This document shows, one piece after another, positions 3,011 through 28,810 of a DNA stretch of 64,000 bases; the stretch's first letter is position 1, and every line of letters begins with the position of its first letter. Source of the DNA: Candidatus Omnitrophota bacterium (GTDB lineage: Bacteria > Omnitrophota > Gorgyraeia > Duberdicusellales > 4484-171); assembly GCA_043820815.1 (NCBI GenBank), contig JBDRDJ010000005.1:105517-169516 (forward strand), written 5' to 3'. Both the position numbers and the translations under genes were made by a program. The notes below the pieces were generated by a model, which was not told the DNA's origin, did not search any database, and saw only the letters and a program-made list of their open reading frames with translations.

Positions 3011-4649
3011 AATATTCCTTCTTCTCCAACTTCCAAAGCCCTATCCAGCTTACCGCTATTGCCGTGCTTATGCTGACAACTACCCAAATCAATAATGCCT
3101 TATTTAGGGTATTATGAAAATAAAGAGATTTACCTTTAAAATAAAGATGTGTTATTGTACCAAATAAAAAAACAGTTATGAAAGTATACCCCACATTAAT
3201 AATAAGTGCTACAAATCCCCCCAGGCTTTCAACAGCCTCAAGGTAATACGGCTGGGTAAAATCGGCAAAATATGCACCCAAGCCCAAAGAATAACTCGAC
3301 ATTGTTAATGTAGAGACTAAAGTGACAAACAAGGCAAGTTTTAAAAAGGCCGGATCAATATCAAGCATGCGGCTGGATGTATAAATAAGCAATCCTGCTA
3401 TAAAAGCGATCGTAGTAAACGAAAGAAAAAACTTTTCAATAAACACTTTCTTTAAAGATACGGGCGCAAGCTTTAAAATCCAGAAATTGCTTCCCTCAAG
3501 GCTCCATTGCGGATAAATAAACCGTATGCCAATGGCTGAAATTATACAAAGAATACTGAACATATTTAAAAATGTTAAAATATTCTTCCATACAGGGACC
3601 AAAAGATGATAAGACATTCTGCGTATATTCAAGAAATAAAAGAACAATATTCCGAAAAAAAGGAAAAACTGAAGCCACTGGCTGGGCTCACGCACAAAAA
3701 GCTTTATATCTTTAGCTATAAAAGCACGCATCTTTATGGGAATAACTTTAAGATAACCGATAACAATTCCTAAATAATCAGTATTAGTTTTCTTATGTAT
3801 AAGCCAGCGGTGCCTATGATAAATAAAAAGAAATGTTTTTGAGGGCAGGCTGATTAGGCTAAGCAAAAGAAAAGAAAGCCCCCAGAGGTTGACAAGGTAT
3901 AAAAGAGATTTCTTAATATTTCCATCCTCGAAATAGGTTAAACCGTACCCCGGCCAAGAAGATGGAAAAAACCAAACTCTGGAAGTTTTTAAGAATGCGA
4001 CTTCCTCGGAAAGAAAATAAAATAAATCTTTTCCTTGATGAAGGCTGCTGTATTTCAAATAAAGAGCAATGAAAATAGCCGGCACAACGGTTACGCTTGC
4101 GATAACAATTTTCTTTAAGCTAAGCCGCCGAAGAATCCAAAGCGCAAGAAAATATCCTGTTGCACACGATATGATAAAAAACGGGACAGAATAAAATATG
4201 CATGCCAACGAAAGTTTAACTCCGATTCCGCCAACTTGAGAGTAAGCCGTGATAAACAGAATTACCCCAAAAAAAGGAATCCAGCAGGTCATAAAAAGAG
4301 ATTCGGCGAACTTATAAAGAATAATGTTTGCTGAATCAACCGGAAGGCTCAACAGGTATTGTGTTTCCTTACTCCTGAATGTTACCCCGTAGAAAAATAC
4401 CCCGAAGCTTAAAGCCACCATACAAAAAAGAATAAAAAACAAAATAAAGATTATTTTCTTGACTATGACCGTGCCCAAACCGCCAAGCACAATAAGAAAC
4501 CTTAGCCCCTCCCAAATTCCGATATATATCCCGAATATCGCAAAAAGAAGAAACAAACAAATAGCAAAAAATCTGAAAGGCGACTTATTATAGATTGATA
4601 TGATGTGATTTAGAAAACTATTCAGGCGCTGAACAAATAAAGGCTTCAT
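3009..4649 (-). CDS. Polytopic membrane protein, probable ABC transporter permease partner
   Basis: 546 aa with about 12 hydrophobic segments, immediately downstream of and translationally coupled to an ABC ATPase. Confidence 0.5.
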   Translation of the reverse strand: MKPLFVQRLNSFLNHIISIYNKSPFRFFAICLFLLFAIFGIYIGIWEGLRFLIVLGGLGTVIVKKIIFILFFILFCMVALSFGVFFYGVTFRSKETQYLLSLPVDSANIILYKFAESLFMTCWIPFFGVILFITAYSQVGGIGVKLSLACIFYSVPFFIISCATGYFLALWILRRLSLKKIVIASVTVVPAIFIALYLKYSSLHQGKDLFYFLSEEVAFLKTSRVWFFPSSWPGYGLTYFEDGNIKKSLLYLVNLWGLSFLLLSLISLPSKTFLFIYHRHRWLIHKKTNTDYLGIVIGYLKVIPIKMRAFIAKDIKLFVREPSQWLQFFLFFGILFFYFLNIRRMSYHLLVPVWKNILTFLNMFSILCIISAIGIRFIYPQWSLEGSNFWILKLAPVSLKKVFIEKFFLSFTTIAFIAGLLIYTSSRMLDIDPAFLKLALFVTLVSTLTMSSYSLGLGAYFADFTQPYYLEAVESLGGFVALIINVGYTFITVFLFGTITHLYFKGKSLYFHNTLNKALLIWVVVSISTAIAVSWIGLWKLEKKEY

Positions 4650-9936: not shown

Positions 9937-10014
9937 GGTTCGACTTCGTCCTTCGACTCGTTTCACTCGCTCAGAACGACTCTGAGCGAAGCGAGAAATG
10001 GCATATAAAAAAAG

Positions 10015-10131
10015 CCCGGCAACTACCTACTCTCCCACAACCTTGCGATTGCAGTACCATCGGCCTCGGAGGACTTAACGGCCGTATTCGGAATGGGAAC
10101 GGGTGTGGCCCCTCCAGTTTGGTCACCGGAC
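10015..10131 (-). rRNA. rrf: 5S ribosomal RNA
   Basis: The reverse complement matches 5S landmarks (CCCGTTCCCATTCCGAAC, GGGAGAGTAGGTAGTTGCC); helix I pairs the two termini. Confidence 0.85.
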
Positions 10132-10602: not shown

Positions 10603-11362
10603 CAGTTTTGTTACTCTTATCCGATTTTCATTGGATAAAGGGCTAATCATTTCTGTTAGCCTCTGCACGTCGCCGTGCAGCTCGGACTGTATCTTCCTTT
10701 GACATCTTTGATGTCAAAGGTCCGGCGTACAGTCTCTGAGGGTTACAAAGAAGCAATTAGTTCCTTAAGAGACAACTTTCTATATTTGCCTCTACTATTC
10801 ATAGAAAAAGCGATCTTAAGGATTTGTATTAATCCATCTTTGGCGAGGTGATTTTTCTCAAACATCATATTCACTACTTTCTTAAATTTAAGAAAATCTT
10901 GATGCTTACAAATCAACGGATAGCTATGGAAAAAAGGTATCACTCTATCTCTTAAGTTTTTTAAATCCCTCACCACAAAAACCCATGTCAAATCATAAGG
11001 ATTTTTACTGTGATTTGGCTTTAAATAACCACAGTCAAGAGTTACCTTAATAAATTCCAATACTTGTGTGCGATTGCCATGCTGTGAAACATGAAATTCA
11101 GGAATAATCTGAATACCTAATCGCACGTTCTTGCTTCGTTGGATTGTGATAGAAAAACTACCTTCACCATCTACAAATCCCGCAATATAATCGCCAGTTT
11201 GCCTCTTTGTCCTTCCCTGCTGATTGTCTGCACCCATATATTGTCACTCCTAACTAATGTTAATCAATATATTTTACACTATAGAGACTAAATAGTCAAA
11301 TAGTAATATGGGATACCCAGATTTTCCAGCATATAGCCAGATTTAAAGACAGCAAATCTCTT
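10603..11362 (-). mobile_element. Group I intron in 23S rRNA domain V (inserted after ...GTGAGACAGT, before TCGGTC)
   Basis: Exon 1 ends GAGACAGU and the intron contains GCUGUC nearby, giving P1 with the U.G wobble. The intron ends in G. R-like (TCAGAGACTG) and S-like (AAGATACAGTCC) core elements lie in the 3' part. The exons rejoin to the conserved ...GAGACAGTTCGGTC. Confidence 0.8.
10743..11237 (-). CDS. Intron-encoded LAGLIDADG homing endonuclease (single-motif, I-CreI-like size, 164 aa)
   Basis: The motif YIAGFVDGEGSF near the N-terminus is the LAGLIDADG signature; the ORF lies wholly inside the group I intron. Confidence 0.85.
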   Translation of the reverse strand: MGADNQQGRTKRQTGDYIAGFVDGEGSFSITIQRSKNVRLGIQIIPEFHVSQHGNRTQVLEFIKVTLDCGYLKPNHSKNPYDLTWVFVVRDLKNLRDRVIPFFHSYPLICKHQDFLKFKKVVNMMFEKNHLAKDGLIQILKIAFSMNSRGKYRKLSLKELIASL

Positions 11363-11502
11363 ACTGTCTCACGACGTTCTGAACCCAGCTCACGTACCCT
11401 TTTAACCGACGAACAGTCGGACCCTTGGGACCTTCTCCAGCCCCAGGATAGGATGAGCCGACATCGAGGTGCCAAACCGCGCCGTCGATGTGAACTCTCG
11501 GG

Positions 11503-11552
<50 letters not shown>

Positions 11553-12015
11553 GCTCCCACGCGCAACCACCGGATCATTAGGCCCTGCTTTCGCATCTGC
11601 TTGGCTTGTCAGCCTCGCAGTCAAGCACCCTTGTGCCCTTACACTCACCGTCCGATTTCCAAACGGACTGAGGGTACCTTTGGGCCCCTCCGTTACTCTT
11701 TAGGAGGGAACTGCCCCAGTTAAACTGCCCAACTGGCACGGTTCTCTGCACAACACAGAGTTAGAATCTTAACATAATAAGGGTGGTATTTCACCGGTGG
11801 CTCCTCCCGACCTAGCGGCCGAAACTCAAAGCCTCCCACCTATGCTACACATATTAGGCCAAAATTCAATACCAGCCTACAGTAAAGGTTCCGGGGTCTT
11901 TTCGTCCTACTGCGGGTAGACGGCATCTGAACCGCCACTACAATTTCGCCGAGAGCCTCGCTGAGACAGTGTTCCCATGGTTTTACCTTTCGTGCGGGTC
12001 GGAAATTACCCGACT

Positions 12016-12056
<41 letters not shown>

Positions 12057-13457
12057 ATTCACCAGGGCTTCGGTTCAAAGCTTCTTCTGACGAATCAGAA
12101 TAACCTTTTCCCTTAACCTTCCGGCATTGGGCAGGTCTCAGTCCCTATACATCCTCTTGCGAGTTAGCAGGGACATGTGTTTTTGCTAAACAGTCCCAGG
12201 AACCATTTCTCTGCGCCCATGACATAAATGTCAAGGGACCCCTTCTCGCGAACTTACGGGGTTATTTTGCCGAGTTCCTTAGCGAGGTTTATCTCGAGCG
12301 CCTTACCATACTATGGCAGCCTACCTGTGTCGGATTCCGGTACGGTCACCTATAGACAACTTAAGAAACTGTTTCTTGGCACTCAATCCTGATGGGTTCG
12401 CCCGCGCCGTAGCTTGGACTCCTGCCGGTCCCTTACGGAACCGAAAACGGACACATCCAACAGTCCGACCATCGCATCTTGTGCGTCATCTCTTAAGTTA
12501 ACGCCTATAGGTGGGGGGTGAACTATTAACACCCTTACCCATCGCCTACTCCCGTTAAACCGGGATTTGACTTAGGGACCGCCTAACCTCCGTTTGACGA
12601 ACATTGACGGAGAAACCTTAGGCTTTCGGCGCACCGATTTTTCATCGGTGTTTTCGCTACTCATTCCAGGATACTCACTTCTATGCGCTCCAGCTTGATT
12701 TACATCAAACCTTCAGTGCGCGTAGAACGCTCCCCTACCCCTTCCGATTATTCATCGGAAAGCCGCGGTTTCGGTAACAGGCTTGAGCCCCGATCATTTT
12801 CGGCGCAAAATCACTCGATCGGTGAGCTATTACGCACTCTTTAAATGATGGCTGCCTCTAAGCCAACATCCCGACTGTCTTAGCAACTTCACATCCTTTA
12901 ACACTTAGCCTGTGTTTTGGGACCTTAACCGGCGGTCTGGGCTGTTTCCCTTTCGACTATGGAGCTTAGCCCCCACAGTCTCACTCCTCGGGTAAGAACA
13001 GTAAAGATTCGGAGTTAGGTTGGGTTTGGTATGGACTCTGTCCACCCTAGCCCATCCTGTGCTCTACCCTCTACGTCCAATCCCGAAGGCTGACCCTAAA
13101 GTCATTTCGGGGAGAACCAGCTATCACCAATCTTGATTAGCCTTTCACTCCAACCCACAGCTCATCCGAGCCTTTTTCAACAGACACCAGTTCGGGCCTC
13201 TATCCCGCTTTCGCGGGACTTCACCCTGGCCATGGGTAGATCGACTGGCTTCGGGTCTATTTCCTACCACTAAAACGCCCTGTTAGGACTCGGTTTCCCT
13301 ACGCCTGCCCCTTATTAGTTACAATAAGGGTTAAACTCGTGATAAAAAATAACTCCCTGGACCATTATGCAAAAGGTACGCCGTCGCCACGCCATTGCTG
13401 ACGGGCTTCGACCGCTTTGTAAACTTATGGTTTCAGATTCTATTTCACTCCCCTCAC

Positions 13458-13494
<37 letters not shown>

Positions 13495-14070
13495 ACTATC
13501 GGTCTGATGCGAGTATTTAGCCTTGCCCCGTGGTCAGGGCGAATTCCCACAAAGTTTCTCGTGCTCCGTGGTACTTGGGAATACATGCCAGAGAGTTTTT
13601 TCCATTTTGCTTACAGGACTATCACCCTCTATGGTGCCGCTTTCCAGCAGCTTCTGCTATAGAAAAAATTTTTGACTCTCCGAGAGCACTGCCGCGCTCT
13701 CCACTTGTACCCCGTAACTCTCAAAAAGCAACACCGGCAGGCTTATAAACTTTTTGAGTTTGGGCTGTTCCCTTTTCGCTCGCCGCTACTGGGGGAATAC
13801 TGTACGGTTTCTCTTCCTCCGGCTACTGAGATGTTTCACTTCACCGGGTTAGTCCCCTTGATATTGTCATACCAAGGGTTTCCAGGCATTACCCTGGAAG
13901 GGTTACCCCATTCGGGAATCTGCGGATCAAAGAAAGCTTGCCTCTCCCCGCAGCTTATCGCAGCTTGCCACGCCCTTCATCACCTGCATCAACCAAGCCA
14001 TCCTCCATAAGCTCTTAGTAGCTTGATACCCAACCAAATTTTCAAAGACCAAATTTATTTTTTTCCTCAA

Positions 14071-17804: not shown

Positions 17805-18206
17805 CTAATCAGGGGTACAGCAGAGGTAAGACGGGCTGCAACCCATGGGAACTCCTCCATTATTCCACCATTGGCTGGTTGACTGAGCACAGCCGGATCC
17901 TGAAGGATGATGGAAAGATGCCAAACTACTGAAGGTATCTTTGCATTCCCCTGTATATCCTAAATACTTCTTTTGAACAAAATTGAGCGGACAAAAATCG
18001 TATTCCGGCAAAGCAGCCTTATTCACACAAGGCTGGGATGCTACGCCATTATTAGTGCCGCAGTGATAGACAAAACAAAAACCCGAAGCTGTGCCGCCTT
18101 GTTGACTTTCATCACTCAAACCTTTTGAACCCAAAACAAAAAATATTGCAATAAAGAATATTGCAAAAACACTGCCGATAAACAAACGTGAAATTTTTCT
18201 TCTCAT
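17805..18206 (-). CDS. Small secreted Cys-rich protein: stand-alone copy of the C-terminal Cys-rich module of the paralog family
   Basis: Signal peptide/TM, then FCFVYHCG...PCVNKAALPEYDFCP...YLGYTGEC...HPSGSGC...YLCC; this aligns with the C-termini of the proteins at 18299-21148. RBS AAAGGAGG. Confidence 0.65.
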   Translation of the reverse strand: MRRKISRLFIGSVFAIFFIAIFFVLGSKGLSDESQQGGTASGFCFVYHCGTNNGVASQPCVNKAALPEYDFCPLNFVQKKYLGYTGECKDTFSSLASFHHPSGSGCAQSTSQWWNNGGVPMGCSPSYLCCTPD

Positions 18207-18298: not shown

Positions 18299-19258
18299 TT
18301 ATTTTATACAAATATAAACACGGTCTCCGGGATAATATGTGAAACCGGCAAGACAGTTTCCCCCGGGCGGCGTATAATGAAAATCAGAGCCTTTTTGGCA
18401 GAGGCCCCAAGTACCAAGATAAACCCTCTGTTTATATTCACCGGGACAAAAATCCTCTGCCGGAAATACCGCTTTATTAACACAAGCAGGCGCATATGAA
18501 CCGCCGCAGTAATAAGTAAAATATATTCCTTCTTCTCCTATGGCCGCCACCCATTTTTTCTCATCACCGTCATAAACCTTAAGCATATAGTAATCCGGCG
18601 GGGATATAATTGCCGGTTTCCCTGCTAAAATATTTGCAGGGCAATCCCCATTATCATCAACCGGCACAATTACCATATCACCTGTTTCTGGATTCTGAGG
18701 ATAAATTGCCGTACAATGATCGGGACTCAAAAGTTGATTTAAAATGGGGAGCGGCTGAATACGGATACCATCAGAAGTCTTAATATGGAGTGTTCTTTGA
18801 GGGCCTCCTTCTGAAATATCAAGGCCAATACCTACTCTTCCCTTATCGCTCACGGATAAAATATCCATGTCACTTCCGGCATTACGCACTCTTAAAGCAT
18901 ACGTATCTGCATTATTGCCGCTGTTCTCACCCCTTATATCAAAACGAGCCAATTGAGCCGGGTCGGTTCCCGCAGACACACCAACAGCAACCTGGCCGCT
19001 AACTGTAAGGCCTCCCGGTATTAGGTCTCCGGCCTGGGCATGATTGGCAGGATATGTCGGCCTCTGGATTTCACCAATACTTTGGCTTTCAACAACAACG
19101 AGATCTTGATATGAACCATAGGGTATAGGGTAATAAGTAGTTAAGGTAATTTCTTTATATCCCTTGGATTTTACCTGGCTTAAAACCGGAAAAATTATTA
19201 ATGCGTTAACAGCTAAGAGTAAAACCGCAACAATAACAAAAATTTTCTTTTTCATCAT
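18299..19258 (-). CDS. Secreted paralog family protein P1 (N-terminal ITLTTYYPIPYG motif, Gly-rich GIG repeats, C-terminal Cys-rich module)
   Basis: Signal peptide; KEITLTTYYPIPYGSYQDL; GRVGIGLD...RTLHI; C-terminus YFTYYCGGSYAPACVNKAVFPAEDFCPGEYKQRVYLGTWGLC...PPGGNC...YICIK. Confidence 0.7.
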   Translation of the reverse strand: MMKKKIFVIVAVLLLAVNALIIFPVLSQVKSKGYKEITLTTYYPIPYGSYQDLVVVESQSIGEIQRPTYPANHAQAGDLIPGGLTVSGQVAVGVSAGTDPAQLARFDIRGENSGNNADTYALRVRNAGSDMDILSVSDKGRVGIGLDISEGGPQRTLHIKTSDGIRIQPLPILNQLLSPDHCTAIYPQNPETGDMVIVPVDDNGDCPANILAGKPAIISPPDYYMLKVYDGDEKKWVAAIGEEGIYFTYYCGGSYAPACVNKAVFPAEDFCPGEYKQRVYLGTWGLCQKGSDFHYTPPGGNCLAGFTYYPGDRVYICIK

Positions 19259-19279: not shown

Positions 19280-20248
19280 TTACTTCTTCTCAATGATGTA
19301 GCCGCCGGGAACACACAGATAAGCTTCTCCGATATTTTCTAAACCCATGTGTTTTCGGCAGCCTCCGCCGGGAGGACGATAAAAATAATCCTTAACAACA
19401 AAGCTACCCTCCTTATGGCAATAGCCCCAATTGCCAAGAGGCATTACTTGTTTAAAACCAACAGGGCAATACTTTTGAGGCTCACCTGCATCAATACAAA
19501 GACGTCCGCCTTGACCGCCGCAATAGTATGTAAAGGCATACCCTTTGCTTCCGGCCTTAGGAGTCATCCATACAGCCGGCTTCTCTAAGTTTGGATCAGC
19601 GTCTGGAACCGATTCCTGATATAGCCACTTAAGCTTATTTTTATCGCTTTTATCAATTAAGATATCGCCGGGCTTGCCGTCAGGCTTATTGCCTACAAGG
19701 GGAAATACATTAACATCGCTTAGGTCTGAATGTTCAATCCTCATGCCGTTATCACCAAAAATATCAAGCCGCCTTCTAGGCTGTTCATTAAACACATTAA
19801 CGCCAAATCCAATCATAGAGTTATTTCCAACTGCCAAAGCATATTTACCGCTGTTACTGCTATCGCGCACACCAAATACATATTCACCGGCTGAATCATT
19901 TTGCCTGGACACATGAACAGTTGTAACAGGCCTATCCACGCCAACGCCTACTCTTCCCGAAACAGCTAAAAGGCCTCCGTTATTAGGCATAACAATTGGA
20001 ACAACCGCAGGCAAATCATCCCTGTCAACAACACCGTCATCATTAACATCGCCAATAACCTGCCTGGTAACATACAAATCTTTATAAACTCCGTAAGGAG
20101 CAGGATAAAATGTTGTTAATGTAATATTTTCGCTCTGATTTTGAGTAAATCCGGGCAAACTTATAATAGAAATAAAACACAAAATATAAATTATTCTTCT
20201 CACAAAATAGCTCCTAAAATAAAAATATTTGTTATCAAAATTCTCCAC
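19280..20248 (-). CDS. Secreted paralog family protein P2 (ITLTTFYPAPYG motif, dockerin-like DVNDDGVVDRDD loop, Cys-rich C-terminus)
   Basis: Signal peptide; NITLTTFYPAPYGVYKDL; GDVNDDGVVDRDD; C-terminus FTYYCGGQGGRLC...YCP...LGNWGYC...PPGGGC...YLC. Confidence 0.7.
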   Translation of the reverse strand: MENFDNKYFYFRSYFVRRIIYILCFISIISLPGFTQNQSENITLTTFYPAPYGVYKDLYVTRQVIGDVNDDGVVDRDDLPAVVPIVMPNNGGLLAVSGRVGVGVDRPVTTVHVSRQNDSAGEYVFGVRDSSNSGKYALAVGNNSMIGFGVNVFNEQPRRRLDIFGDNGMRIEHSDLSDVNVFPLVGNKPDGKPGDILIDKSDKNKLKWLYQESVPDADPNLEKPAVWMTPKAGSKGYAFTYYCGGQGGRLCIDAGEPQKYCPVGFKQVMPLGNWGYCHKEGSFVVKDYFYRPPGGGCRKHMGLENIGEAYLCVPGGYIIEKK

Positions 20249-21148
20249 AGATATACGCCTTGCCTATAGGAAGAGATTTAGTGTCCCCTGGAAAACAGCC
20301 TCCGCCGGGAGGATGATAATAGGAATAAGCCGGCGGCCACCCCCAGGGTCCCTTCGGAACTTCACAATTACCCCATTCCCCCAGATAAACTTTTTCTTTA
20401 AATTGTATATTGTTTATAACCGGGCAATGGTTCTCAATAGGAGGGTTATCAGGTGGACAAAGCCTGCACGTTTCATTTTGCCCGGTACAATTATAACTGC
20501 AGTAATAATCAAAATGGACATTAGTTCTTCCTGCGCTTCTCCATTTTTCTCCGTCGTGCCAGCTAAGCGCATTGCCATTGCTTAAATCAACTACAATATC
20601 GCCGGTATCGCCTTCAGGTTGGTTGTTTACGCGGGGAAAGCTGTTAAGGTCAGCGGCCTTGAGCCTTATTCCGTTAACACCGCCGACATGAAGGGTCCTT
20701 TCTGCATCGTTAACACCAATGCCTATTCTACCGTTGCTATTTATAAACATTGCAAAATCAGCTTTGCCTGGGCTGCTGCCAATACCAAGAGGAAATTGTC
20801 CGTGGACACTATTTATACCGGTATCTCTTACAATATCTAAAGTAGCGGCAGGGGAAGTTGTGCCAATACCTAATCTTGAGGCAACAGTCAAGCCTCCAGG
20901 TGTTGGCTGGCCTGCGCTTGGATGGCCAGGGGGTATCTAAGCATATCCTCGGAATCAACATCGCCGTCACCGTCAACATCCCCTATGACTTCGTGGTTGG
21001 TAACGATTATTTCTCTATATAATCCGTAAGGCGAGGGGTAATAGGTAGTAAGGGTTATTTTTTCATCAGCCTGCTGGCAGAAAAGAGAGGATTGAAAGGA
21101 AAAACATAAAAAAGATACGAATAAAATAAAAGCAAACTGTCTTAACAT
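20235..21148 (-). pseudogene. Paralog P3 broken by a frameshift in a G5 (plus-strand) homopolymer at 20929-20933; one extra G restores a single ORF of about 304 aa
   Basis: The ORF at 20888-21148 encodes signal peptide + EKITLTTYYPSPYGLY + GDVDGDGDVDSEDMLRY. The frame of 20235-20891 continues upstream as IPPGHPSAGQPTPGGLTVASRLGIGTTSP..., matching the neighbours. The two frames meet in the CCCCC run. Confidence 0.65.
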
Positions 21149-21243
21149 TCCTGCGTCTCCCCTGAATATCAGCTAAATTAGTAAATATGAGTACCATATA
21201 AGTGTAACATATTTTTTAATTAAAAACCACCTTTTTTTATGAA

Positions 21244-21272
21244 CTAATAGCGTAAAAGGGGTCAGTGTGACC
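21244..21272 (-). terminator. Hairpin GTAAAAGGGGTCACACTGACCCCTTTTAC downstream of btuD
   Basis: Perfect inverted repeat plus a U-rich tail on the minus strand, immediately after the stop at 21277. Confidence 0.5.
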
Positions 21273-21276
21273 CCTT

Positions 21277-22053
21277 TTACGCAAGAAAAACATAAGGGGT
21301 ATTAGAAGACGGGTGATTTCCAATTTCGACATTAGTTTGATAAACATCTTCGATTATTGCCTTGGTGATAACTTGGCCGGGCAAGCCTTGTGAATGGGCT
21401 TTTCCCTTATTAAGAAGAACCAATCTGTCACAATATTGAGATGCAAGGTTTAAATCATGTAAAATCACAATAACCGTAAACCCTTTTTCTTTATGCAGCC
21501 TTTTTAGAAGGTTTAAAATCTTAACTTGATTGCCTATGTCAAGATGGCTTGTTGGTTCATCTAAAAGTAAAAGCAAAGGTTCCTGGGCCAGAGCTGCGGC
21601 AATGCTCGCAAGCTGCCTCTCGCCTGAGCTGATCTCAAGCAAAGACTTACCTTTAATATGTTCCGTATGAGTGCCTCTAAGAGCAGAATGAACTGCGGCT
21701 AAATCATTTTTAGTCTCAAAAAACTGAAATCTTCTAAAATGAGGGGTTCTTCCAAGCAGTACATATTCTTCAACTGTTATGGGAATATGCTCTTCAGTTT
21801 GGCTTACAACCGCGATTTTCTTTGCAAGCTTAGTTCTCTTTATATTAATTAAATCCTCATCGTCGAAAATAATCTTGCCCGATTTTATTTTAAGAATCCC
21901 TGCGACTGCCTTGAGCATGGTTGTTTTGCCGGAACCGTTTGGGCCGATTATTCCTATAAAACCCCCCTTCTGAACAGTTAAATTGATCCCTGATAGAGAA
22001 AAATTATCATAACCGCACTCAAGATCAAATATTTCAAGTAATTTAGAGCTCAT
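21277..22053 (-). CDS. btuD: ABC transporter ATP-binding protein (iron-siderophore/cobalamin family, BtuD/FepC-like)
   Basis: Walker A GPNGSGKTT, signature SGERQ, Walker B LLLDEPTSHLD; adjacent to a FecCD permease and a binding protein. Confidence 0.8.
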   Translation of the reverse strand: MSSKLLEIFDLECGYDNFSLSGINLTVQKGGFIGIIGPNGSGKTTMLKAVAGILKIKSGKIIFDDEDLINIKRTKLAKKIAVVSQTEEHIPITVEEYVLLGRTPHFRRFQFFETKNDLAAVHSALRGTHTEHIKGKSLLEISSGERQLASIAAALAQEPLLLLLDEPTSHLDIGNQVKILNLLKRLHKEKGFTVIVILHDLNLASQYCDRLVLLNKGKAHSQGLPGQVITKAIIEDVYQTNVEIGNHPSSNTPYVFLA

Positions 22054-23057
22054 AAATATCTCTTTTTGCCCAAAGCATATATAAAAACTGAACCGCCGAT
22101 TATTCCCGTAATTACCCCTACGGGAAGCTCAAGAGGTAAAATAATTGTCCGGGCAGCTATATCGCAGGAAATAAGAAATATTGCCCCTGCCAGATAAGAA
22201 GATAATAAAAGTATCCTGTGGTCACGGCCGCAAACTATTCGCATAAAATGAGGAACAACTAACCCGACAAAGCCTACGATTCCGCAGACAGAGACAAAAA
22301 CTCCCGTTAAAAGGCTTGCCATAAGAAAAATTATCTTTTTTAATCTCTCAACATTTAAACCTAAATAAGCGGCCTGTTCTTCCCCCAAAGACAAAGCGTT
22401 CAACCGCACAGATAAAAAGCAAGCTGTTATCAGCCCGAGGAATGAACACAAAGCGGCAAGCTGCGTTAATTTCCAATCGGCCTTGCCCAAATAACCCATT
22501 GTCCACATAACAATACCGTGTAAATCTTCTGTCTTTGAAAGCGCCATTACAAGCATAATCAACGACGAACTTATATAGCTTACCATGACTCCTGAAAGCA
22601 ATACGCCTTTTAATTCAAGCAGGCCTTTTCGCAGGCTGATAGAATATAGAAAACAAACAACCAAAAGCGAGCCCAGAAATCCGGATATAGCAAGAGAGGC
22701 ATTGCCTAATATGGCAAAACTTCCTCTTAACCCCAAGCTTAAGCTGACCCCCAGACAAGCGCCCCCTGAAATACCTAAGGTGTAAGGCTCAACAAGCGGG
22801 TTTCTAAACATCGCCTGAAGCATAACACCGACAAGGCTTAATCCCCCTCCCACAGCTAAACCTAAGACAATCCGCTGAAAACGCAAATTCCATATAATAC
22901 TGAAGGCAATAGAATCATGTCTGCCAAATAATGAAGCTATAACTTCTCTTGCAGAATATCCTATCGTGCCTGTTTTTAAGGAAACAAAACAAACTCCTAA
23001 AAGTATTAGCAAAAGCGTAATTATACAAAAAGCGTAGCGGATTATCTTTTTATTCAT
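22050..23057 (-). CDS. btuC: FecCD-family ABC permease (BtuC-like)
   Basis: 335-aa polytopic protein with the typical FecCD layout (..GLAVGGGLSLVG.., ..TGIIGG..); translationally coupled. Confidence 0.8.
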   Translation of the reverse strand: MNKKIIRYAFCIITLLLILLGVCFVSLKTGTIGYSAREVIASLFGRHDSIAFSIIWNLRFQRIVLGLAVGGGLSLVGVMLQAMFRNPLVEPYTLGISGGACLGVSLSLGLRGSFAILGNASLAISGFLGSLLVVCFLYSISLRKGLLELKGVLLSGVMVSYISSSLIMLVMALSKTEDLHGIVMWTMGYLGKADWKLTQLAALCSFLGLITACFLSVRLNALSLGEEQAAYLGLNVERLKKIIFLMASLLTGVFVSVCGIVGFVGLVVPHFMRIVCGRDHRILLLSSYLAGAIFLISCDIAARTIILPLELPVGVITGIIGGSVFIYALGKKRYL

Positions 23058-23913
23058 TGTCAGGATGAATTATTTTCACAAATTCCTTTAATGCCTGTAA
23101 GAACGCAGCCGGGTTCGGCCTGGTTACAACATCGGCGCAAACGAAGTGTATCCGATTGTTCTTTACCGCACCAATAGATTCAAAACTCCTCCACAGCTTC
23201 ATTTCTTCTTCCTGGATGATACCCATTGACGCAATAATGATAATATCGGGGTTTTTCCTAAGAACTTCTTCGCGTGAATAAATCCCCTGGGGGCTGTCTT
23301 TGGCAATATTTACTGCCCCGGAAAATTCAATAAGGTCATTAACAAAAGAGTTCTTATTAACGGTAAAAAGGGGCTTTGCGCCGATTTGAACGAAAACCTT
23401 CGGGCCTGCTTTACTTGATACAGAACCGCGTATTTCATTGATTTCGTTTTTTACATCACCTATCATTTCTTCTGCTTCTGCTCTTTTTCCTATTAACCCG
23501 CCAAGGCGGATAAACTGTTCACAGAGATCATCGAAATTAACAGGCTCGGCAAATACTGCCGTATTGATATTAAAATTTCTAAGAAGATTCTTATCATTAT
23601 CAGAAAGCATAGTTGTAACCAAAACTAAATCCGGCTTCATGGCCAAAACCTTCTCTATATTGATACCGGTGAGAGTGCCAATTTTTTCTTTTTCTTTAGC
23701 AAAAGCCGGACGCGTGCAGTATATCGTGTCAGCAATAAGTTTATCTTGGGCACCAAGAGCATAAATTCCTTCGGTCAATGCCGGGCTTAATGAGATTATT
23801 CGCGAAGGCAATTTATCCTGTGTGTAACCGTAATCACACAAAAAAATGAAAATAGCTGCATAAATAAAATTTAATTTTGATAAATTCATAACGGAAGAAA
23901 ATCGCAATAGCAA
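23050..23913 (-). CDS. btuF: Periplasmic substrate-binding protein (BtuF/iron-siderophore class III)
   Basis: Signal peptide, RIISLSPALTE...KPDLVL motifs typical of BtuF-like binding proteins. Confidence 0.75.
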   Translation of the reverse strand: MLLRFSSVMNLSKLNFIYAAIFIFLCDYGYTQDKLPSRIISLSPALTEGIYALGAQDKLIADTIYCTRPAFAKEKEKIGTLTGINIEKVLAMKPDLVLVTTMLSDNDKNLLRNFNINTAVFAEPVNFDDLCEQFIRLGGLIGKRAEAEEMIGDVKNEINEIRGSVSSKAGPKVFVQIGAKPLFTVNKNSFVNDLIEFSGAVNIAKDSPQGIYSREEVLRKNPDIIIIASMGIIQEEEMKLWRSFESIGAVKNNRIHFVCADVVTRPNPAAFLQALKEFVKIIHPDNE

Positions 23914-24554
23914 AACCTGTCGTCTCTTAACACAATTTCACCTTTGACAAAGGCAACCGGCTCTTTAAAAATTGGCCCGTCAAAGACAAAAGAGTGGAAT
24001 TCTCCGTTTTCACCGCAATGGTCAACTCCCTCTGGCAATTCAGAAACAAGGCCTTTTGAAAATAACCTCCCGGTGAATTTCTTATCAAGCCTTTTTGTAT
24101 CTACACAAGATAAAGCAGCCTTGAACCCATAATTTATAAACGAATCAGCAAGCTTTTTTGTATCCTTTCCCCAAAGAGGAAAGATTGCTTTTAAGCCTGC
24201 CTCGCTTAATTTATCCTCCCGGTAACGCCTTAAATCCTCAAGAAAAATATCGCCGACAACAACAGATTCAACCCCGTTTTTCTTGTAATTTAAAAGGGTA
24301 TTTTTCATTTGCGCTTCATAATCTCCGTTTGCAGCGTCTTTGGTAATGAAAACTTTTTCAAGACAAATACCTAAGCTTAGGGCTTGCTGTTCAAGAAGAG
24401 ACGTTCTTACGCCGTGCATGCTTATTCTGTCATAATCGCGGGTAACTGTTGTAAGCAGGGCGGCGACTTCATATTGTTTTGTTTTTATTATTTCATAAAG
24501 CGCGAACGCAGAATCTTTACCGCCACTCCAAGAAATTAGGACCTTTTCTCGCAT
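23886..24554 (-). CDS. PP-loop ATP pyrophosphatase, Dph6/MJ0570-related (COG2102-like)
   Basis: N-terminal SWSGGKDS PP-loop; overall pattern of diphthine-ammonia-ligase-like alpha/beta ATPases; embedded in the riboswitch-controlled btu operon. Confidence 0.65.
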   Translation of the reverse strand: MREKVLISWSGGKDSAFALYEIIKTKQYEVAALLTTVTRDYDRISMHGVRTSLLEQQALSLGICLEKVFITKDAANGDYEAQMKNTLLNYKKNGVESVVVGDIFLEDLRRYREDKLSEAGLKAIFPLWGKDTKKLADSFINYGFKAALSCVDTKRLDKKFTGRLFSKGLVSELPEGVDHCGENGEFHSFVFDGPIFKEPVAFVKGEIVLRDDRFCYCDFLPL

Positions 24555-24599
24555 GATTAATTAACGGTGCAGGCAGGCCTGCACCCTACAATCCAATTA

Positions 24600-26555
24600 T
24601 TAGAATTCGCATTTAAAACCGGTGTAGAGAGATAGTTTTTCTTCCTGATAACCCTTGATTCTTTCGTAATCTTTATTTAATAAATTATTCACCTTTATAA
24701 ACAACGTTGATTTATCATTAAGCCGGTAGTTGCAATTTAAATTAACTAGAGTGTAAGGCTTCATAGGAACAAAACTATCCACTGCCCCAACCCATATTCT
24801 ATCAGTTCTCGAGCCTGCGTAAATAAAATCTAAAATTGTTTTTAATTTCTTAAATTCCCATGTAATATTAAAATATGCCTTATGCCTGGGCACGCGGATT
24901 AAGGCACGGCTGAAAATATCCACTAAATTATCGTCAACAAAATCCTGCTCACCGTTTAAATGCGTATATCCGGTTTCAATTTTTAAGGCTTCATCGGGCT
25001 TATAATCAAAAGAAATCTCAACTCCCCTCATTTTCTGCTTAGCGGCATTTTTGTATTCTCCCTGATAAAGCGAAGGATTTGTAAATACAAAATCAATTAA
25101 TCCTTTCAAATTGGAGTGAAAGTAGGCAAAATTAAGCGATATTTTATCGCCAAAGGCTTGCTTGAAGCCGGCCTCCCAGGTTTTTGACTCTTCCGGTTCA
25201 AGATTGCGGTTTCCGTTTGATGAAAACAGCTGATACAAAGACGGTGCTTTAAACCCCTCTCCGTAAGAAAAGAATAGATTAGAATTATCAATAGGGCTGT
25301 AAGAAACTCCTGATTTCACAACAGAATGATATTTAAAAAGAGGGCTGTATTCACGCCGGTATGAAAAATCTACATTTAGATTTTCCCATGGGTTTATAAT
25401 CTGCTCAACAAACCACCCCTTGGCATAGCTGCTTACCTTAGGCGAATCAGAAGCATACCCAAAAGCCCAGGCGTAATCATAGGTATACCTGTAGCTGTCC
25501 ATATGCTCCTGGGTATAATCAAAGCCTACGAGAGTCCTGTATTCATTTAAAGGCCGCAGCTCGAAATGGTTTGACAGCTGATAAGTGCTGCCTTTATACC
25601 AACCTCTTGTATATTCATCAGCGCCGCCCTCATTGTCATCAAAAACTTTCCTGTAAATCCTGGTATAGCCGGCCTGGATTTTATAATCAAGGCAATCGAG
25701 TAAATTTTTCTTAATGTAAGTAGTGCCAAAAAACTCATTACCTATATTTAGATTATCAGGGTCATCTTCGGGAAATCCGTCTAAGTTATCGTCATCATCT
25801 ATCTCAGTTCTGGAATGTGAGCCTCTCATATAAAGGGCCATCTCAAGATTTTGCGGTTCTTGATAATTTAACCCCAGTGTAAGATTTGTATTCTGGTAGG
25901 GGTCACGTTCAGGGTTGTTATTCTTTTCTTTTGCTTTTGAAATACCTTTTGAATCAACCCGGGCAATATTAAAAAGATAGGATAAATTATTTGATTCTCC
26001 GCCTAATTCTAAGCTTTCTTGAAATGTATCGTGAGAACCGGATAAAGATGAAATATTGATATGCGGCCGGCCAGCAGGCCTTTTAACAAGAAAATTAACC
26101 GCACCTCCTATAGGAGAAGATCCGTAAAGGGATGAAAGGGGGAATTTTACAATCTCTATTTTATTGAGGCCGGTTGCGAGAAAGTCCGAAGGCACGTAGT
26201 AGGCTGATGTATTTGAAGGGTCATAGATTTTTAATCCTTCAAATAAATAGGCAGTATGCCTTGTTCTTGCTCCTCTTATATAGATTCCCTCAGAGGAACT
26301 TCCGAGCCTACCTCCGCCTATAACATCAACGCCGGTTATGCCTGAAAGAGTTTCGCCGGCAGTAAACAGGTTTTTGCCTTCAATATTCTCTTGGCCTAAA
26401 ACATTAACATGAATATCGTGATATTTTGACTCTACCTCAGTCTTTGAAGGCGTGATTACTAAATTGCCCAGGTCAACGGGATCCTGGCTGTAACAGACCA
26501 GGGATACAAGACACAAGACCGCAGGCAATAATAATTTTTTTAATAATTTTGGCAT
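24600..26555 (-). CDS. btuB: TonB-dependent outer-membrane receptor (cobalamin receptor BtuB-like)
   Basis: Signal peptide, TonB-box-like DLGNLVITPSKTE, plug and barrel, C-terminal ...FKCEF ending in Phe; first gene after a cobalamin riboswitch. Confidence 0.8.
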   Translation of the reverse strand: MPKLLKKLLLPAVLCLVSLVCYSQDPVDLGNLVITPSKTEVESKYHDIHVNVLGQENIEGKNLFTAGETLSGITGVDVIGGGRLGSSSEGIYIRGARTRHTAYLFEGLKIYDPSNTSAYYVPSDFLATGLNKIEIVKFPLSSLYGSSPIGGAVNFLVKRPAGRPHINISSLSGSHDTFQESLELGGESNNLSYLFNIARVDSKGISKAKEKNNNPERDPYQNTNLTLGLNYQEPQNLEMALYMRGSHSRTEIDDDDNLDGFPEDDPDNLNIGNEFFGTTYIKKNLLDCLDYKIQAGYTRIYRKVFDDNEGGADEYTRGWYKGSTYQLSNHFELRPLNEYRTLVGFDYTQEHMDSYRYTYDYAWAFGYASDSPKVSSYAKGWFVEQIINPWENLNVDFSYRREYSPLFKYHSVVKSGVSYSPIDNSNLFFSYGEGFKAPSLYQLFSSNGNRNLEPEESKTWEAGFKQAFGDKISLNFAYFHSNLKGLIDFVFTNPSLYQGEYKNAAKQKMRGVEISFDYKPDEALKIETGYTHLNGEQDFVDDNLVDIFSRALIRVPRHKAYFNITWEFKKLKTILDFIYAGSRTDRIWVGAVDSFVPMKPYTLVNLNCNYRLNDKSTLFIKVNNLLNKDYERIKGYQEEKLSLYTGFKCEF

Positions 26556-26585
26556 GTTAACCTCCTTTATTTGTTGTTATTTATT

Positions 26586-26610
26586 ACGGGCGGCCGCAAG
26601 GGCCGCCCGT
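26586..26610. repeat. GC-rich hairpin repeat, copy 2 (ACGGGCGGCCGCAAGGGCCGCCCGT, perfect 10-bp stem)
   Basis: Same family as 2988, 46831 and 48046; lies between the riboswitch terminator and the btuB RBS. Confidence 0.7.
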
Positions 26611-26613
26611 ACA

Positions 26614-26660
26614 ATAAAAAACCCCCTATACCGCTCGCTTTCACAAGTGATATAGGGGTG
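26614..26660 (-). terminator. Intrinsic terminator of the riboswitch expression platform
   Basis: Minus strand CCCCTATA...TATAGGGGG followed by TTTTTTATT, just downstream of the aptamer. Confidence 0.6.
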
Positions 26661-26694
26661 CACCCTTATTTACTTTGCCCTATAATTAAAAAAA

Positions 26695-26895
26695 TTTAGG
26701 TTCTATTTCCGCGCAAAACCTAAAGTCACATACTTATTCAGCAGGTCTTCTGACTTACCCGCTCTTTTAACGCCTTCCCATCCTAATTTATTCGGAAAGT
26801 GGCTTAAGTGTTAAAAGAGTTTTCTCATCTTAAGAGAAACAGGATCACAGCTCCGGGAGAGCTGCCGAATTTCACGGCATTCCCTTTTAATCCAT
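26695..26895 (-). promoter_or_regulatory. Cobalamin (AdoCbl) riboswitch
   Basis: Minus strand carries GGGAATGCCGTGAAATTCGGCAGC...CCCGGAGCTGTGATCC...GCCACT...GGGAAGGCG...AGTCAGAAGACCTGCTG. This matches the cobalamin aptamer core (GGGAA..GGTGAAA.TCC..GC.G.CCC.GC.ACTGT) and B12 box (AGYCAGGAGACCTGCC). Confidence 0.8.
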
Positions 26896-27088
26896 ATGGC
26901 ACTGAATCAGTAAATTAATCAAATTTTTAAAGAGCTGATTTATTTTACATGAAGGAGATGTTGTGTCAAGCTTTTTCGGAATACGGATAGCGACCGAAGG
27001 GAGTCCTGAGCGAGACCGAAGGTCGAGTCGAAGGGCGGATTGCGTGATGCGTTATTGTTCGGTGTTGGTTATTTGCAGGCACGCATTA

Positions 27089-27511
27089 TCAAGCACCAGA
27101 AAGGTAAGACTTTACCGTTTTAAGATAATCGCTAATTACTGCGGGGATATTTTGAAGTTTATCGTAAACAATTTCGTGGTCTAAAGCCGCGTATTCGTGA
27201 ACAAGTATATTTCTGAACCGGGCCAGGTCGATAAGTTTTTCTTTTAACTCACTGTCAATAATATTATTTTCAAATAAGATTCTTGGTATCTCAGCATAAG
27301 TATCGGGCTTGCGAAACTTCTTTTCGCTGATAATTATTTCTCCGATAGTTAGATATGCTTCCAAAGCTAAATGAAGCTCCCTTTCGGCCAAATCATGAAT
27401 CTTCCAATCAGAAAGAAATTTATCACGTGAACATTTCTTAAGCTCATTCAGCTGTTTTGCATAACGCTCTAACTCTAATAAATACTTGGCTATTTTTTCC
27501 TGATCAACCAT
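27089..27511 (-). CDS. hepT: HEPN-domain toxin HepT (DUF86)
   Basis: 140 aa with the C-terminal R-x4-HxY motif (RNILVHEY); directly downstream of an MNT-type nucleotidyltransferase. Confidence 0.8.
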   Translation of the reverse strand: MVDQEKIAKYLLELERYAKQLNELKKCSRDKFLSDWKIHDLAERELHLALEAYLTIGEIIISEKKFRKPDTYAEIPRILFENNIIDSELKEKLIDLARFRNILVHEYAALDHEIVYDKLQNIPAVISDYLKTVKSYLSGA

Positions 27512-27516
27512 AAAAG

Positions 27517-27927
27517 TTAACCATCTTTTATCGCCTGCCTTGTATATTTATCAAGATAAGGCTTCCAGTCCAGATATTTAAGTATAGTTATCTGCTCATA
27601 ATCAAGTCTCAGTTTTTCATCGGCGCAGTAAATAAGTTTGCCGTCACGCAGAATTCTTTGCGCTAAGAAAGGGCTTGCATTGTTTAAAAGCACAAGGTCT
27701 ATCTCGTCAGTCTTAAGGGCATCGTTTAACCGGCCAAGCAGTTCTAATTTCTTTCCGGAATATTCCTTCCTATCCAATCCTCCTATATACAAAGCAATGT
27801 CAATATCACTCAAAGGACCGGTTGAGCCTTTTGCCTGTGAGCCAAAAAGATAAGCAAACACAACACCGCTATCTCTACATACAGCGTTTATCTTCTCCCC
27901 GATCTCTTCTCTGTTATGCTTTGCCAT
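27517..27927 (-). CDS. mntA: Minimal nucleotidyltransferase MntA (antitoxin, pol-beta-type NTase)
   Basis: GS-x10-SDID motif (FGSQAKGSTGPLSDIDIAL) of the pol-beta NTase fold; 136 aa; 5-nt gap to hepT. Confidence 0.8.
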   Translation of the reverse strand: MAKHNREEIGEKINAVCRDSGVVFAYLFGSQAKGSTGPLSDIDIALYIGGLDRKEYSGKKLELLGRLNDALKTDEIDLVLLNNASPFLAQRILRDGKLIYCADEKLRLDYEQITILKYLDWKPYLDKYTRQAIKDG

Positions 27928-28029: not shown

Positions 28030-28810
28030 ACCACAGAGGCCGCAGGGTGTAGGTCGAGTAGACCCGTATTTCAGAGCCCCTCACAGAACCGTACGTGCGG
28101 ATTTCCCGCATACGGCTCTTGAGTAAATTTCCATCAGTATACGATTATGCGTATCACATTATCAACCCCTACCGCTTTATTCCTGTCAAGCGTATAGAAG
28201 CTCGCCTTTAAGGATTCCTTGTTAACATGTTGCATTATGTTGACAAACTTTCGCTTAGAATCCCTTGCGGCATACTGACTTAGTGTGGTTAATTTCGTTC
28301 CCACTGTTTTCCTTTGAACTTTGAGTTCATACAATGTTTCCTTAACCACATTCAACTTACTCCTAACCCCTTCGAGCAGCTTTAAGCTTTAGCGGCGTTA
28401 CCCGCTATTGACTCTAATATGGATTAGTCCGACTACCATTCATGTCGTACTATTGCCTTACTTCTTCAGCTTAAGCACTAGCTTAATTGGAAACATGATG
28501 GTCATCCCAAGTTCCAATGCAAACATTCGATAACCCACGGTGGCTTACTACCCCGGCAGGACAACATATCCTTGCCATAGCGTTTATGCTGTTACTGGTT
28601 TCCAGCACTTGAAAACTTTAACCCACTGCTACATGTCTATTTCGGGGCTAAAAATCCTTCACTTGTGTTACCGTTGATTATCTCCTTCCCCTTGGCTTTG
28701 CACGATTTGTTACCGCCTCGTACACAAGGTTCAGTACCTCCCTGATGGCTAATCTTTAAGAGAGTTAGCTTTTACATACTAACCTGTCTGCATCAGCTTT
28801 CTTGGCGCAC
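28030..28810 (-). mobile_element. ORF-degenerate group II intron (about 0.78 kb), probably class C: inserted in intergenic DNA immediately after a stem-loop
   Basis: 5' end GTGCGCC (revcomp of 28804-28810). Domain V GAGCCGTATGCGGGAAATCCGCACGTACGGTTC (revcomp of 28086-28118) matches the DV consensus. A 73-aa RT N-terminal remnant sits between. The exon flank just 5' of the insertion forms the hairpin TCAAGTCTCAACTTGA. The 3' boundary is approximate; D6 was not resolved. Confidence 0.75.
28134..28355 (-). pseudogene. Remnant of the group II intron-encoded reverse transcriptase/maturase (N-terminal 73 aa only)
   Basis: The translation ...LYELKVQRKTV...FVNIMQHVNKESLKASFYTLDRNKAVGVDNV resembles the RT0/N-terminal region of intron-encoded proteins (..L...I...NL..A...V..NKGAAGVDG..). 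The ORF stops 16 nt before DV. Confidence 0.6.

Follow-up and report, generated by a model that had tools for sequence, protein, structure and literature searches.

The gene g1, which heads an array of four tandem paralogs in an Omnitrophota genome, is assembled as two overlapping open reading frames (ORFs). This break is most likely that of an ordinary frameshifted copy in a multigene family, either a young pseudogene or a sequencing slip, and not an evolved switch. The sequence analyzed was a 64-kb stretch of DNA (64,000 nucleotides; hereafter the window). All four paralogs are on its minus strand, with g1 extending from 21148 to 20235 and followed by g2, g3, and g4 (Table 1); they share 28–41% identity, and a Cys-rich C-terminal domain is common to all of them.

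The ORF list and translations placed the two parts of g1, of 86 and 218 aa, in different frames, at the same positions and with the same translations as in the original prediction. Reading the frame of the longer ORF upstream of its TTG gave a stop followed by IPPGHPSAGQPTPGGLTVASRLGIGTTSP, again in agreement with that prediction, and the proposed alignment of this segment with the neighboring genes also held. Past the frameshift, the N-terminal ORF continues for 13 out-of-frame codons (LAIQAQASQHLEA) and then ends at a TGA. The 218-aa fragment contains GIGT stalk repeats and the Cys-rich C-terminal domain (YLGEWGNC...HPPGGGC...AYIC). Its TTG "start" reads as an internal Leu codon of the conserved PGGLTV motif, and the GGAGG located only 1 nt 5' of that TTG corresponds to the codons for G-G. 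The NCBI annotation lists the halves as two separate hypothetical proteins; because the supposed start and its supposed ribosome-binding sequence are accounted for as PGGLTV and G-G codons, this annotation is an artefact of the frameshift. At the other end, the broken gene retains an intact translation start, because a GGGGAG precedes its ATG at a spacing of 8 nt.

A family profile was built from the paralogs and the first hits. Each half of g1 alone matched this profile in a 1.84-billion-protein library (N-terminal half, P0015, E=3.5e-21; C-terminal half, P0001, E=1.6e-36). Because each half matches the profile, and because the repaired product described below aligns without gaps over the junction, we conclude from the sequence that the two ORFs are one gene divided by a one-base frameshift. 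Both halves keep every invariant and near-invariant residue of the family, and no stop or frameshift was found in g1 beyond the single break. Because the conserved residues are all kept and there is no second stop or shift, the lesion is probably recent.

Table 1. Positions of g1, its break, its paralogs, and the flanking hairpin in the window
Feature	Coordinates	Strand	Description
g1 N-terminal fragment	20888..21148	-	86 aa; signal peptide, EKITLTTYYPSPYGLY motif, dockerin-like DVDGDGDVDSED loop; ABH872_01445 / MFH1771454.1
g1 C-terminal fragment	20235..20891	-	218 aa from TTG; ABH872_01440 / MFH1771453.1 (P0001)
Shine-Dalgarno-like GGGGAG	21157..21162	-	8 nt upstream of g1 ATG; read from sequence
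Both frames stop-free	20888..20936	-	Sole overlap of the two stop-free stretches; homology narrows it to 20927-20933
Homopolymer	20929..20933	.	G5 on + strand = C5 on coding strand (taC CCC Ctg); likeliest site of one-base loss
g2, intact paralog	19280..20203	-	307 aa, P0016; GTG start 7 nt after AGGAG; 41% identical to repaired g1
g3, intact paralog	18299..19258	-	318/319 aa, P0018, ABH872_01430
g4, short paralog	17805..18206	-	133 aa; hydrophobic N-terminus and Cys-rich C-terminal domain only
15-bp hairpin	21250..21282	-	Overlaps stop codon (21277) of upstream ABC-ATPase gene

Because the two stop-free stretches overlap nowhere outside 20888-20936, the frame must switch inside that interval. 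The coding strand there reads ...GAG GAT ATG CTT AGA TAC CCC CTG GCC ATC..., with the C5 at 20933-20929. Adding one base after TAC CCC produced TAC CCC CCT GGC CAT (Y P P G) and an uninterrupted ORF of 304 aa with the junction sequence YPPGHPSAGQPTPGGLTVASR, which bore out the claim that one extra base at the G5 yields an unbroken paralog of about 304 aa. The repaired product aligned gap-free through the junction with the intact paralog P0018, as RYPPGHPSAGQPTPGGLTV versus TYPANHAQAGDLIPGGLTV (BLASTP E=4e-30) and, over a longer stretch, as …RYPPGHPSAGQPTPGGLTVAS versus …TYPANHAQAGDLIPGGLTVSG. The distant relative P0003 (DNDLARYPAG...IPGGLTVAE; …DNDLARYPAG…GQTIPGGLTVAE) likewise aligned gap-free over it. 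By this homology, the frame changes at 20927-20933, between RYP and GH, either within the run or adjoining it.

For an interval of 7 nt, the estimated probability of overlap with any of the 49 G/C runs of at least 5 nt is ~0.009 in the window (~1%) and ~0.04 within g1 (~4%), so the co-location of switch and run is unlikely to be chance. Loss within the homopolymer itself would thus be the most economical reading, and to that extent the claim that the frames cross exactly at GGGGG stands. The missing base need not have been a C, however, because an ancestral GCT codon (YPAG in P0003; YPAN in the paralog) that had lost its G would leave the identical present sequence.

What is observed directly is the split, where it lies, the homology over it, and the lack of a second lesion. 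On these we base, with moderate confidence, the interpretation that g1 is a young frameshift pseudogene produced by a genuine and recent inactivating deletion. In the proposed course of events, the first gene of the four-gene array would have carried a C6 run, and the deletion of one nucleotide in this run or immediately next to it would have left the present C5. The frame would then shift after codon 71, and translation from the intact start would stop 14 codons later, giving an 86-aa stub with the signal peptide, the anchor motif, and the Ca-loop. The remaining 218 codons, which encode the stalk and the Cys-rich tip, would have neither a signal peptide nor a properly spaced ribosome-binding site. 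Because only a stub would be made and the downstream codons lack both signals, this copy would be an inactive pseudogene, with three paralogs remaining intact. We infer that the sampled population truly carries the deletion in its DNA, that the deletion inactivates the gene, and that replication slippage gave rise to it.

The overlap of the two ORFs leaves room for the alternative that both are functional, the stub and the 218-aa product both being made, with the latter arising by termination-reinitiation at the overlapping TTGA. The TGA of the first ORF does overlap the TTG of the second at 20891-20888, with GGAGG just 5' of it, and both halves are listed by NCBI as proteins. However, the relatives carry a signal peptide and an anchor motif at the N-terminus, and the 218-aa product would have neither; the spacing between GGAGG and TTG is 1 nt, and the TTGA belongs to conserved G-G-L-T codons in another frame. 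Moreover, folding of a Cys-rich extracytoplasmic domain in the cytoplasm is unlikely. We consider this arrangement barely credible.

Equally improbable in our judgment is recoding, in which a programmed -1 ribosomal frameshift or transcriptional slippage at the C run would yield some full-length protein from the G5 allele. The shift required is -1, and a tRNA-Pro in the P site, paired with CCC, can shift to the CCC one base back. The well-known slip of tRNA-Pro at CCC-C, however, is +1, and a +1 slip here would be non-productive, entering a frame that closes after 39 codons (ORF 20809-20979). There is also no X XXY YYZ heptamer: the zero-frame sequence is C CCC CUG, and the tRNA at the A-site CUG would need to pair with CCU. 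The sole local hairpin (CUGGCC-N11-GGCCAG) abuts the run and does not lie 5–9 nt downstream, the predicted RNA fold around the run was no better than that of shuffled sequences (z=-0.58), and the C-run site is not conserved in the paralogs. For transcriptional slippage, the known cases need longer runs.

A more serious competitor of the pseudogene interpretation is a consensus error, in which the genome carries six G's (or a different base there) in an intact gene, and a base went missing in sequencing, assembly, or polishing. A homopolymer is the classic place for an indel error, and apparent pseudogenes in assemblies and databases are often artefacts (Cooley and Wright 2024, PMC11017572). 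The halves of g1 are otherwise perfectly preserved, and this absence of decay would be equally expected of an error or of a reversible state. The source contig is 238 kb long and crosses both an rRNA operon and a group II intron, which would suit long-read data. Against an error, 403 homopolymer runs of at least 5 nt lie inside the 48 intact ORFs of at least 150 aa. They include 40 A/T runs of 7–9 nt, which would fail first if the error depended on length, and no second frame break was seen in the 48 kb of coding sequence in the window. Because so many runs sit in intact ORFs with no other frame break, a systematic homopolymer error is unlikely. Overall, we regard an error at this one site as possible but doubtful.

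No copy of g1 was found in other assemblies when 5.8 billion proteins, cluster look-ups, GTDB genomes, JGI metagenomes, and a contig index were searched, the nearest match being 30% identical. The protein clusters of the two halves have a single member each. Decayed copies also occur in other tandem arrays of the family (L030 3408-3602), and this fits birth-and-death turnover. That array, from another metagenome-assembled genome (MAG), ends in a 64-aa remnant, and within L030 3408-3800 AAAGGGGACAGCGACCTTTT occurs twice just downstream of it (~3641-3660 and ~3769-3788); AAAGGGGACAGCGACCTTTT may be a small repeat element linked to the truncation.

Besides a pseudogene and an assembly error, the two options weighed above, the original prediction had put forward, and stressed, a third: that the homopolymer is an ON/OFF switch of a surface-protein gene. 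Under phase variation, G5/G6 would be a reversible slipped-strand switch, with the fibre gene OFF in the G5 state, as assembled, and ON in the G6 state, varying the surface repertoire. In favor of this, g1 is a probable surface fibre gene and part of a multigene array, its tract is located in the first (5') third of the ORF, and a one-base change toggles the frame. Nevertheless, every test that we ran went against this proposal: the tract is short, the window has no long G/C runs, the paralogs have no tract, and only 1 of 84 relatives is truncated. We consider phase variation of g1 very unlikely.

With regard to length, the cut-off for a phase-variable tract is at least 7 G/C, and tracts that just reach this length may still switch at a rate below 1e-5 (PhasomeIt, PMC6321876); the g1 tract, of 5 nt or of 6 nt if repaired or ON, is below it. 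Among the 49 G/C runs of at least 5 nt in the window (39.9% GC), the longest was 6, and because of this the segment appears to be devoid of hypermutable tracts. No other simple-sequence repeats were found in the array. At the homologous site, g3 has TAT CCT GCC AAT CAT (YPANH) with no homopolymer, and g2 has a different sequence, also with no tract, so the run is not a feature of the family. In addition, the lost base was possibly one other than C.

For the survey of relatives, we examined 78 related loci in other genomes, containing 85 ORFs with the N-terminal motif; one ORF (L070) runs off the end of its contig, which left 84. Phase-variable families usually have many OFF copies visible. Of these 84 complete ORFs, one was truncated, the decayed remnant that ends the tandem array described above. 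Because a switching family should show many OFF copies whereas 1 of 84 was truncated, frameshift switching in this family is unlikely.

In other genomes, G/C runs of at least 7 nt were ~3-fold more common in family genes (5 in 69.5 kb) than in their flanks (10 in 467 kb). All five of the runs in family genes were in frame, with the qualification that the numbers are small and that Gly/Pro-rich genes confound the comparison. We set this excess aside as support for a switch because of the small sample and the Gly/Pro-rich confounding. In other Omnitrophota MAGs, in-frame G7-G8 or C7 runs are present in a few family genes, L064 2714-3262 (two runs in one gene), L045, L052, and L058, and these genes would be better slipped-strand candidates than the G5 of g1.

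The fullest form of the switch proposal is that C5/C6 is a low-rate, selected, reversible switch that varies the displayed tip, similar to that of the mosaic adhesive trimer (MAT) fibres discussed below, of a predatory or parasitic Omnitrophota. We consider this highly improbable; if true, it would be the first contingency-type variation in an uncultured phylum, the Omnitrophota, and with an unusually short tract.

Upstream of g1, the 15-bp hairpin at the end of the ABC-ATPase gene marks the upstream boundary of the transcription unit of the array, and there was no excess of promoter-like signals in the array. The last gene, g4, is without the YYPSPYG motif and the stalk and resembles a stand-alone "tip". 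The neighbors of the array on the source contig are chromosomal housekeeping genes: uppP, rpsU, B12 uptake genes, and an rRNA operon. A prophage tail-fibre origin for the array was considered and rejected on the basis of these neighbors, weak PHROG matches, and the absence of any confirmed member of the N-motif family from 2.9 million viral contigs (IMG/VR).

Other features of the window were recorded in passing. On the minus strand, a cobalamin riboswitch (26723-26921) heads a cluster at 21277-26921 that encodes a TonB-dependent receptor, a Diphthami_syn_2-family protein, a periplasmic binding protein, a permease, and the ABC ATPase; finding a Diphthami_syn_2 gene in a B12-uptake operon is unusual. 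An ORF for a LAGLIDADG_1 homing endonuclease (10743-11237, minus strand; Pfam E=2e-21) occupies the ~1.2-kb spacer between the 23S rRNA (11321-14028) and the 5S rRNA (10014-10130), and the 23S match spans the whole Rfam model in just 2,708 nt. A group II intron at 28053-28773 (minus strand) has domains D1-D4 (28541-28773) and D5/6 (28053-28120); because these are separated by only ~420 nt, there is no space for a reverse-transcriptase ORF. The intron adjoins a nucleotidyltransferase/HepT toxin-antitoxin pair (27089-27927).

Searches of Pfam and NCBIfam gave no family model matching any of the four paralogs. The family profile, in turn, matched 4,205 cluster representatives at E<=1e-3 and 949 at E<=1e-10. 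All of the named relatives belong to the Omnitrophota, as do nearly all of the 205 confirmed loci among GTDB species representatives, with a few carrying third-party 'Planctomycetia' labels. The family is thus large and apparently restricted to the Omnitrophota.

Its members, which are secreted and fibre-like, share a plan of a signal peptide, an ITLTTYYPSPYGxY motif, often a dockerin-like DxDGDG loop, GxVGIGTxxPxxxLxV repeats, and a variable C-terminus. The motif is nearly invariant and directly follows the likely cleavage site; T32, Y36, Y37, P38, and G42 are at least 90% conserved among the relatives. The C-terminus, which in the array is the Cys-rich domain, is elsewhere Peptidase_S74, C1q, Dockerin_1, H_lectin, or YadA-head (the last two from precomputed annotation). 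Because a signal peptide and stalk repeats are held in common with Bdellovibrio surface fibres, it is a reasonable inference that this is a surface-protein family. A monomer model of repaired g1 had a pLDDT of 72 and a pTM of 0.38, with a pLDDT below 50 in the motif region, and Foldseek found no significant neighbor of this model in the PDB.

Family genes often form tandem arrays. In two unrelated Omnitrophota genomes (L001 5698-6522; L002/L003 5486-6585), a short member of 173–194 aa is preceded by a divergently transcribed gene for an HTH_3/XRE-type regulator; the array in the window has no such flanking regulator.

For annotation, these results mean that ABH872_01440 and ABH872_01445 should become a single entry that is flagged as frameshifted; treating them as two genes inflates the numbers of genes and families. 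The gene family is more noteworthy than the frameshift, having 4,205 representatives, no Pfam or NCBIfam model, and stalks like those of Bdellovibrio prey-recognition fibres. If the Omnitrophota are predators or parasites, as proposed, host range may be influenced by how such arrays acquire and lose copies; one broken gene in a single MAG is little evidence for this idea.

Among known systems, g1 is closest in form to homopolymer frameshift pseudogenes and the errors that look like them (PMC11017572): it has a one-base indel, two annotated ORFs, and paralogs that show the frame. Only the undescribed family to which the gene belongs and its occurrence in a single genome set it apart from known frameshift pseudogenes. 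With programmed -1 frameshifting, as in dnaX and IS elements (PMC5009743), it shares two overlapping frames for one protein and the need for a -1 shift, but it has no slippery heptamer, no spaced stimulator, and no conserved arrangement. The contingency loci of Campylobacter, Neisseria, and Haemophilus (PMC6321876) are similar in having an intragenic G/C run near the 5' end and a frame toggled by one base; in g1, however, the tract is 5/6 nt and not at least 7, it is not conserved in the paralogs, and the relatives are almost never OFF.

The comparison with the MAT fibres of Bdellovibrio bacteriovorus concerns the family as a whole. These fibres are trimers displayed on the cell surface; their N-terminal domain is conserved, and their mosaic tips recognize prey (Caulton et al. 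2024, PMC10769870); the structures named are PDB 8ond, 8oml, 8ojn, and 8ol4. The family profile (A3) matched the C-terminal parts of the MAT proteins in the PDB (Bd2133, 2.7e-11; Bd1334, 7.7e-5; Bd3182, 2.1e-3; Bd2439, 5.3e-3), with the matches starting at profile position 75 and running through the stalk repeats. The hosts may also be alike, each being a proposed predator or parasite (PMC10066038).

The order of parts is MAT-like: a signal peptide, a conserved N-terminal module, stalk repeats of the GNVGIGTxxPxxKLxV type, and an interchangeable C-terminal tip. The beta-helix-type stalk repeats of the MAT fibres are present in the Omnitrophota family. Tips are mosaic in both, being S74, TNF/C1q-like, or lectin domains in MAT; in the family, the same N-motif is joined to Peptidase_S74, C1q, Dockerin_1, H_lectin, or YadA-head.

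On the other hand, the ~130-aa beta-rich N-terminal domain of MAT is missing, its place being taken by the ITLTTYYPSPYGxY motif of ~15–30 aa. The family proteins are much shorter, at 180–500 aa versus ~1,000 aa for MAT, and the Cys-rich tip of the array had no match in the PDB. By analogy, then, trimeric surface display of the family is putative and its membership among the MAT fibres partial, and the likeness in overall plan is a good one.
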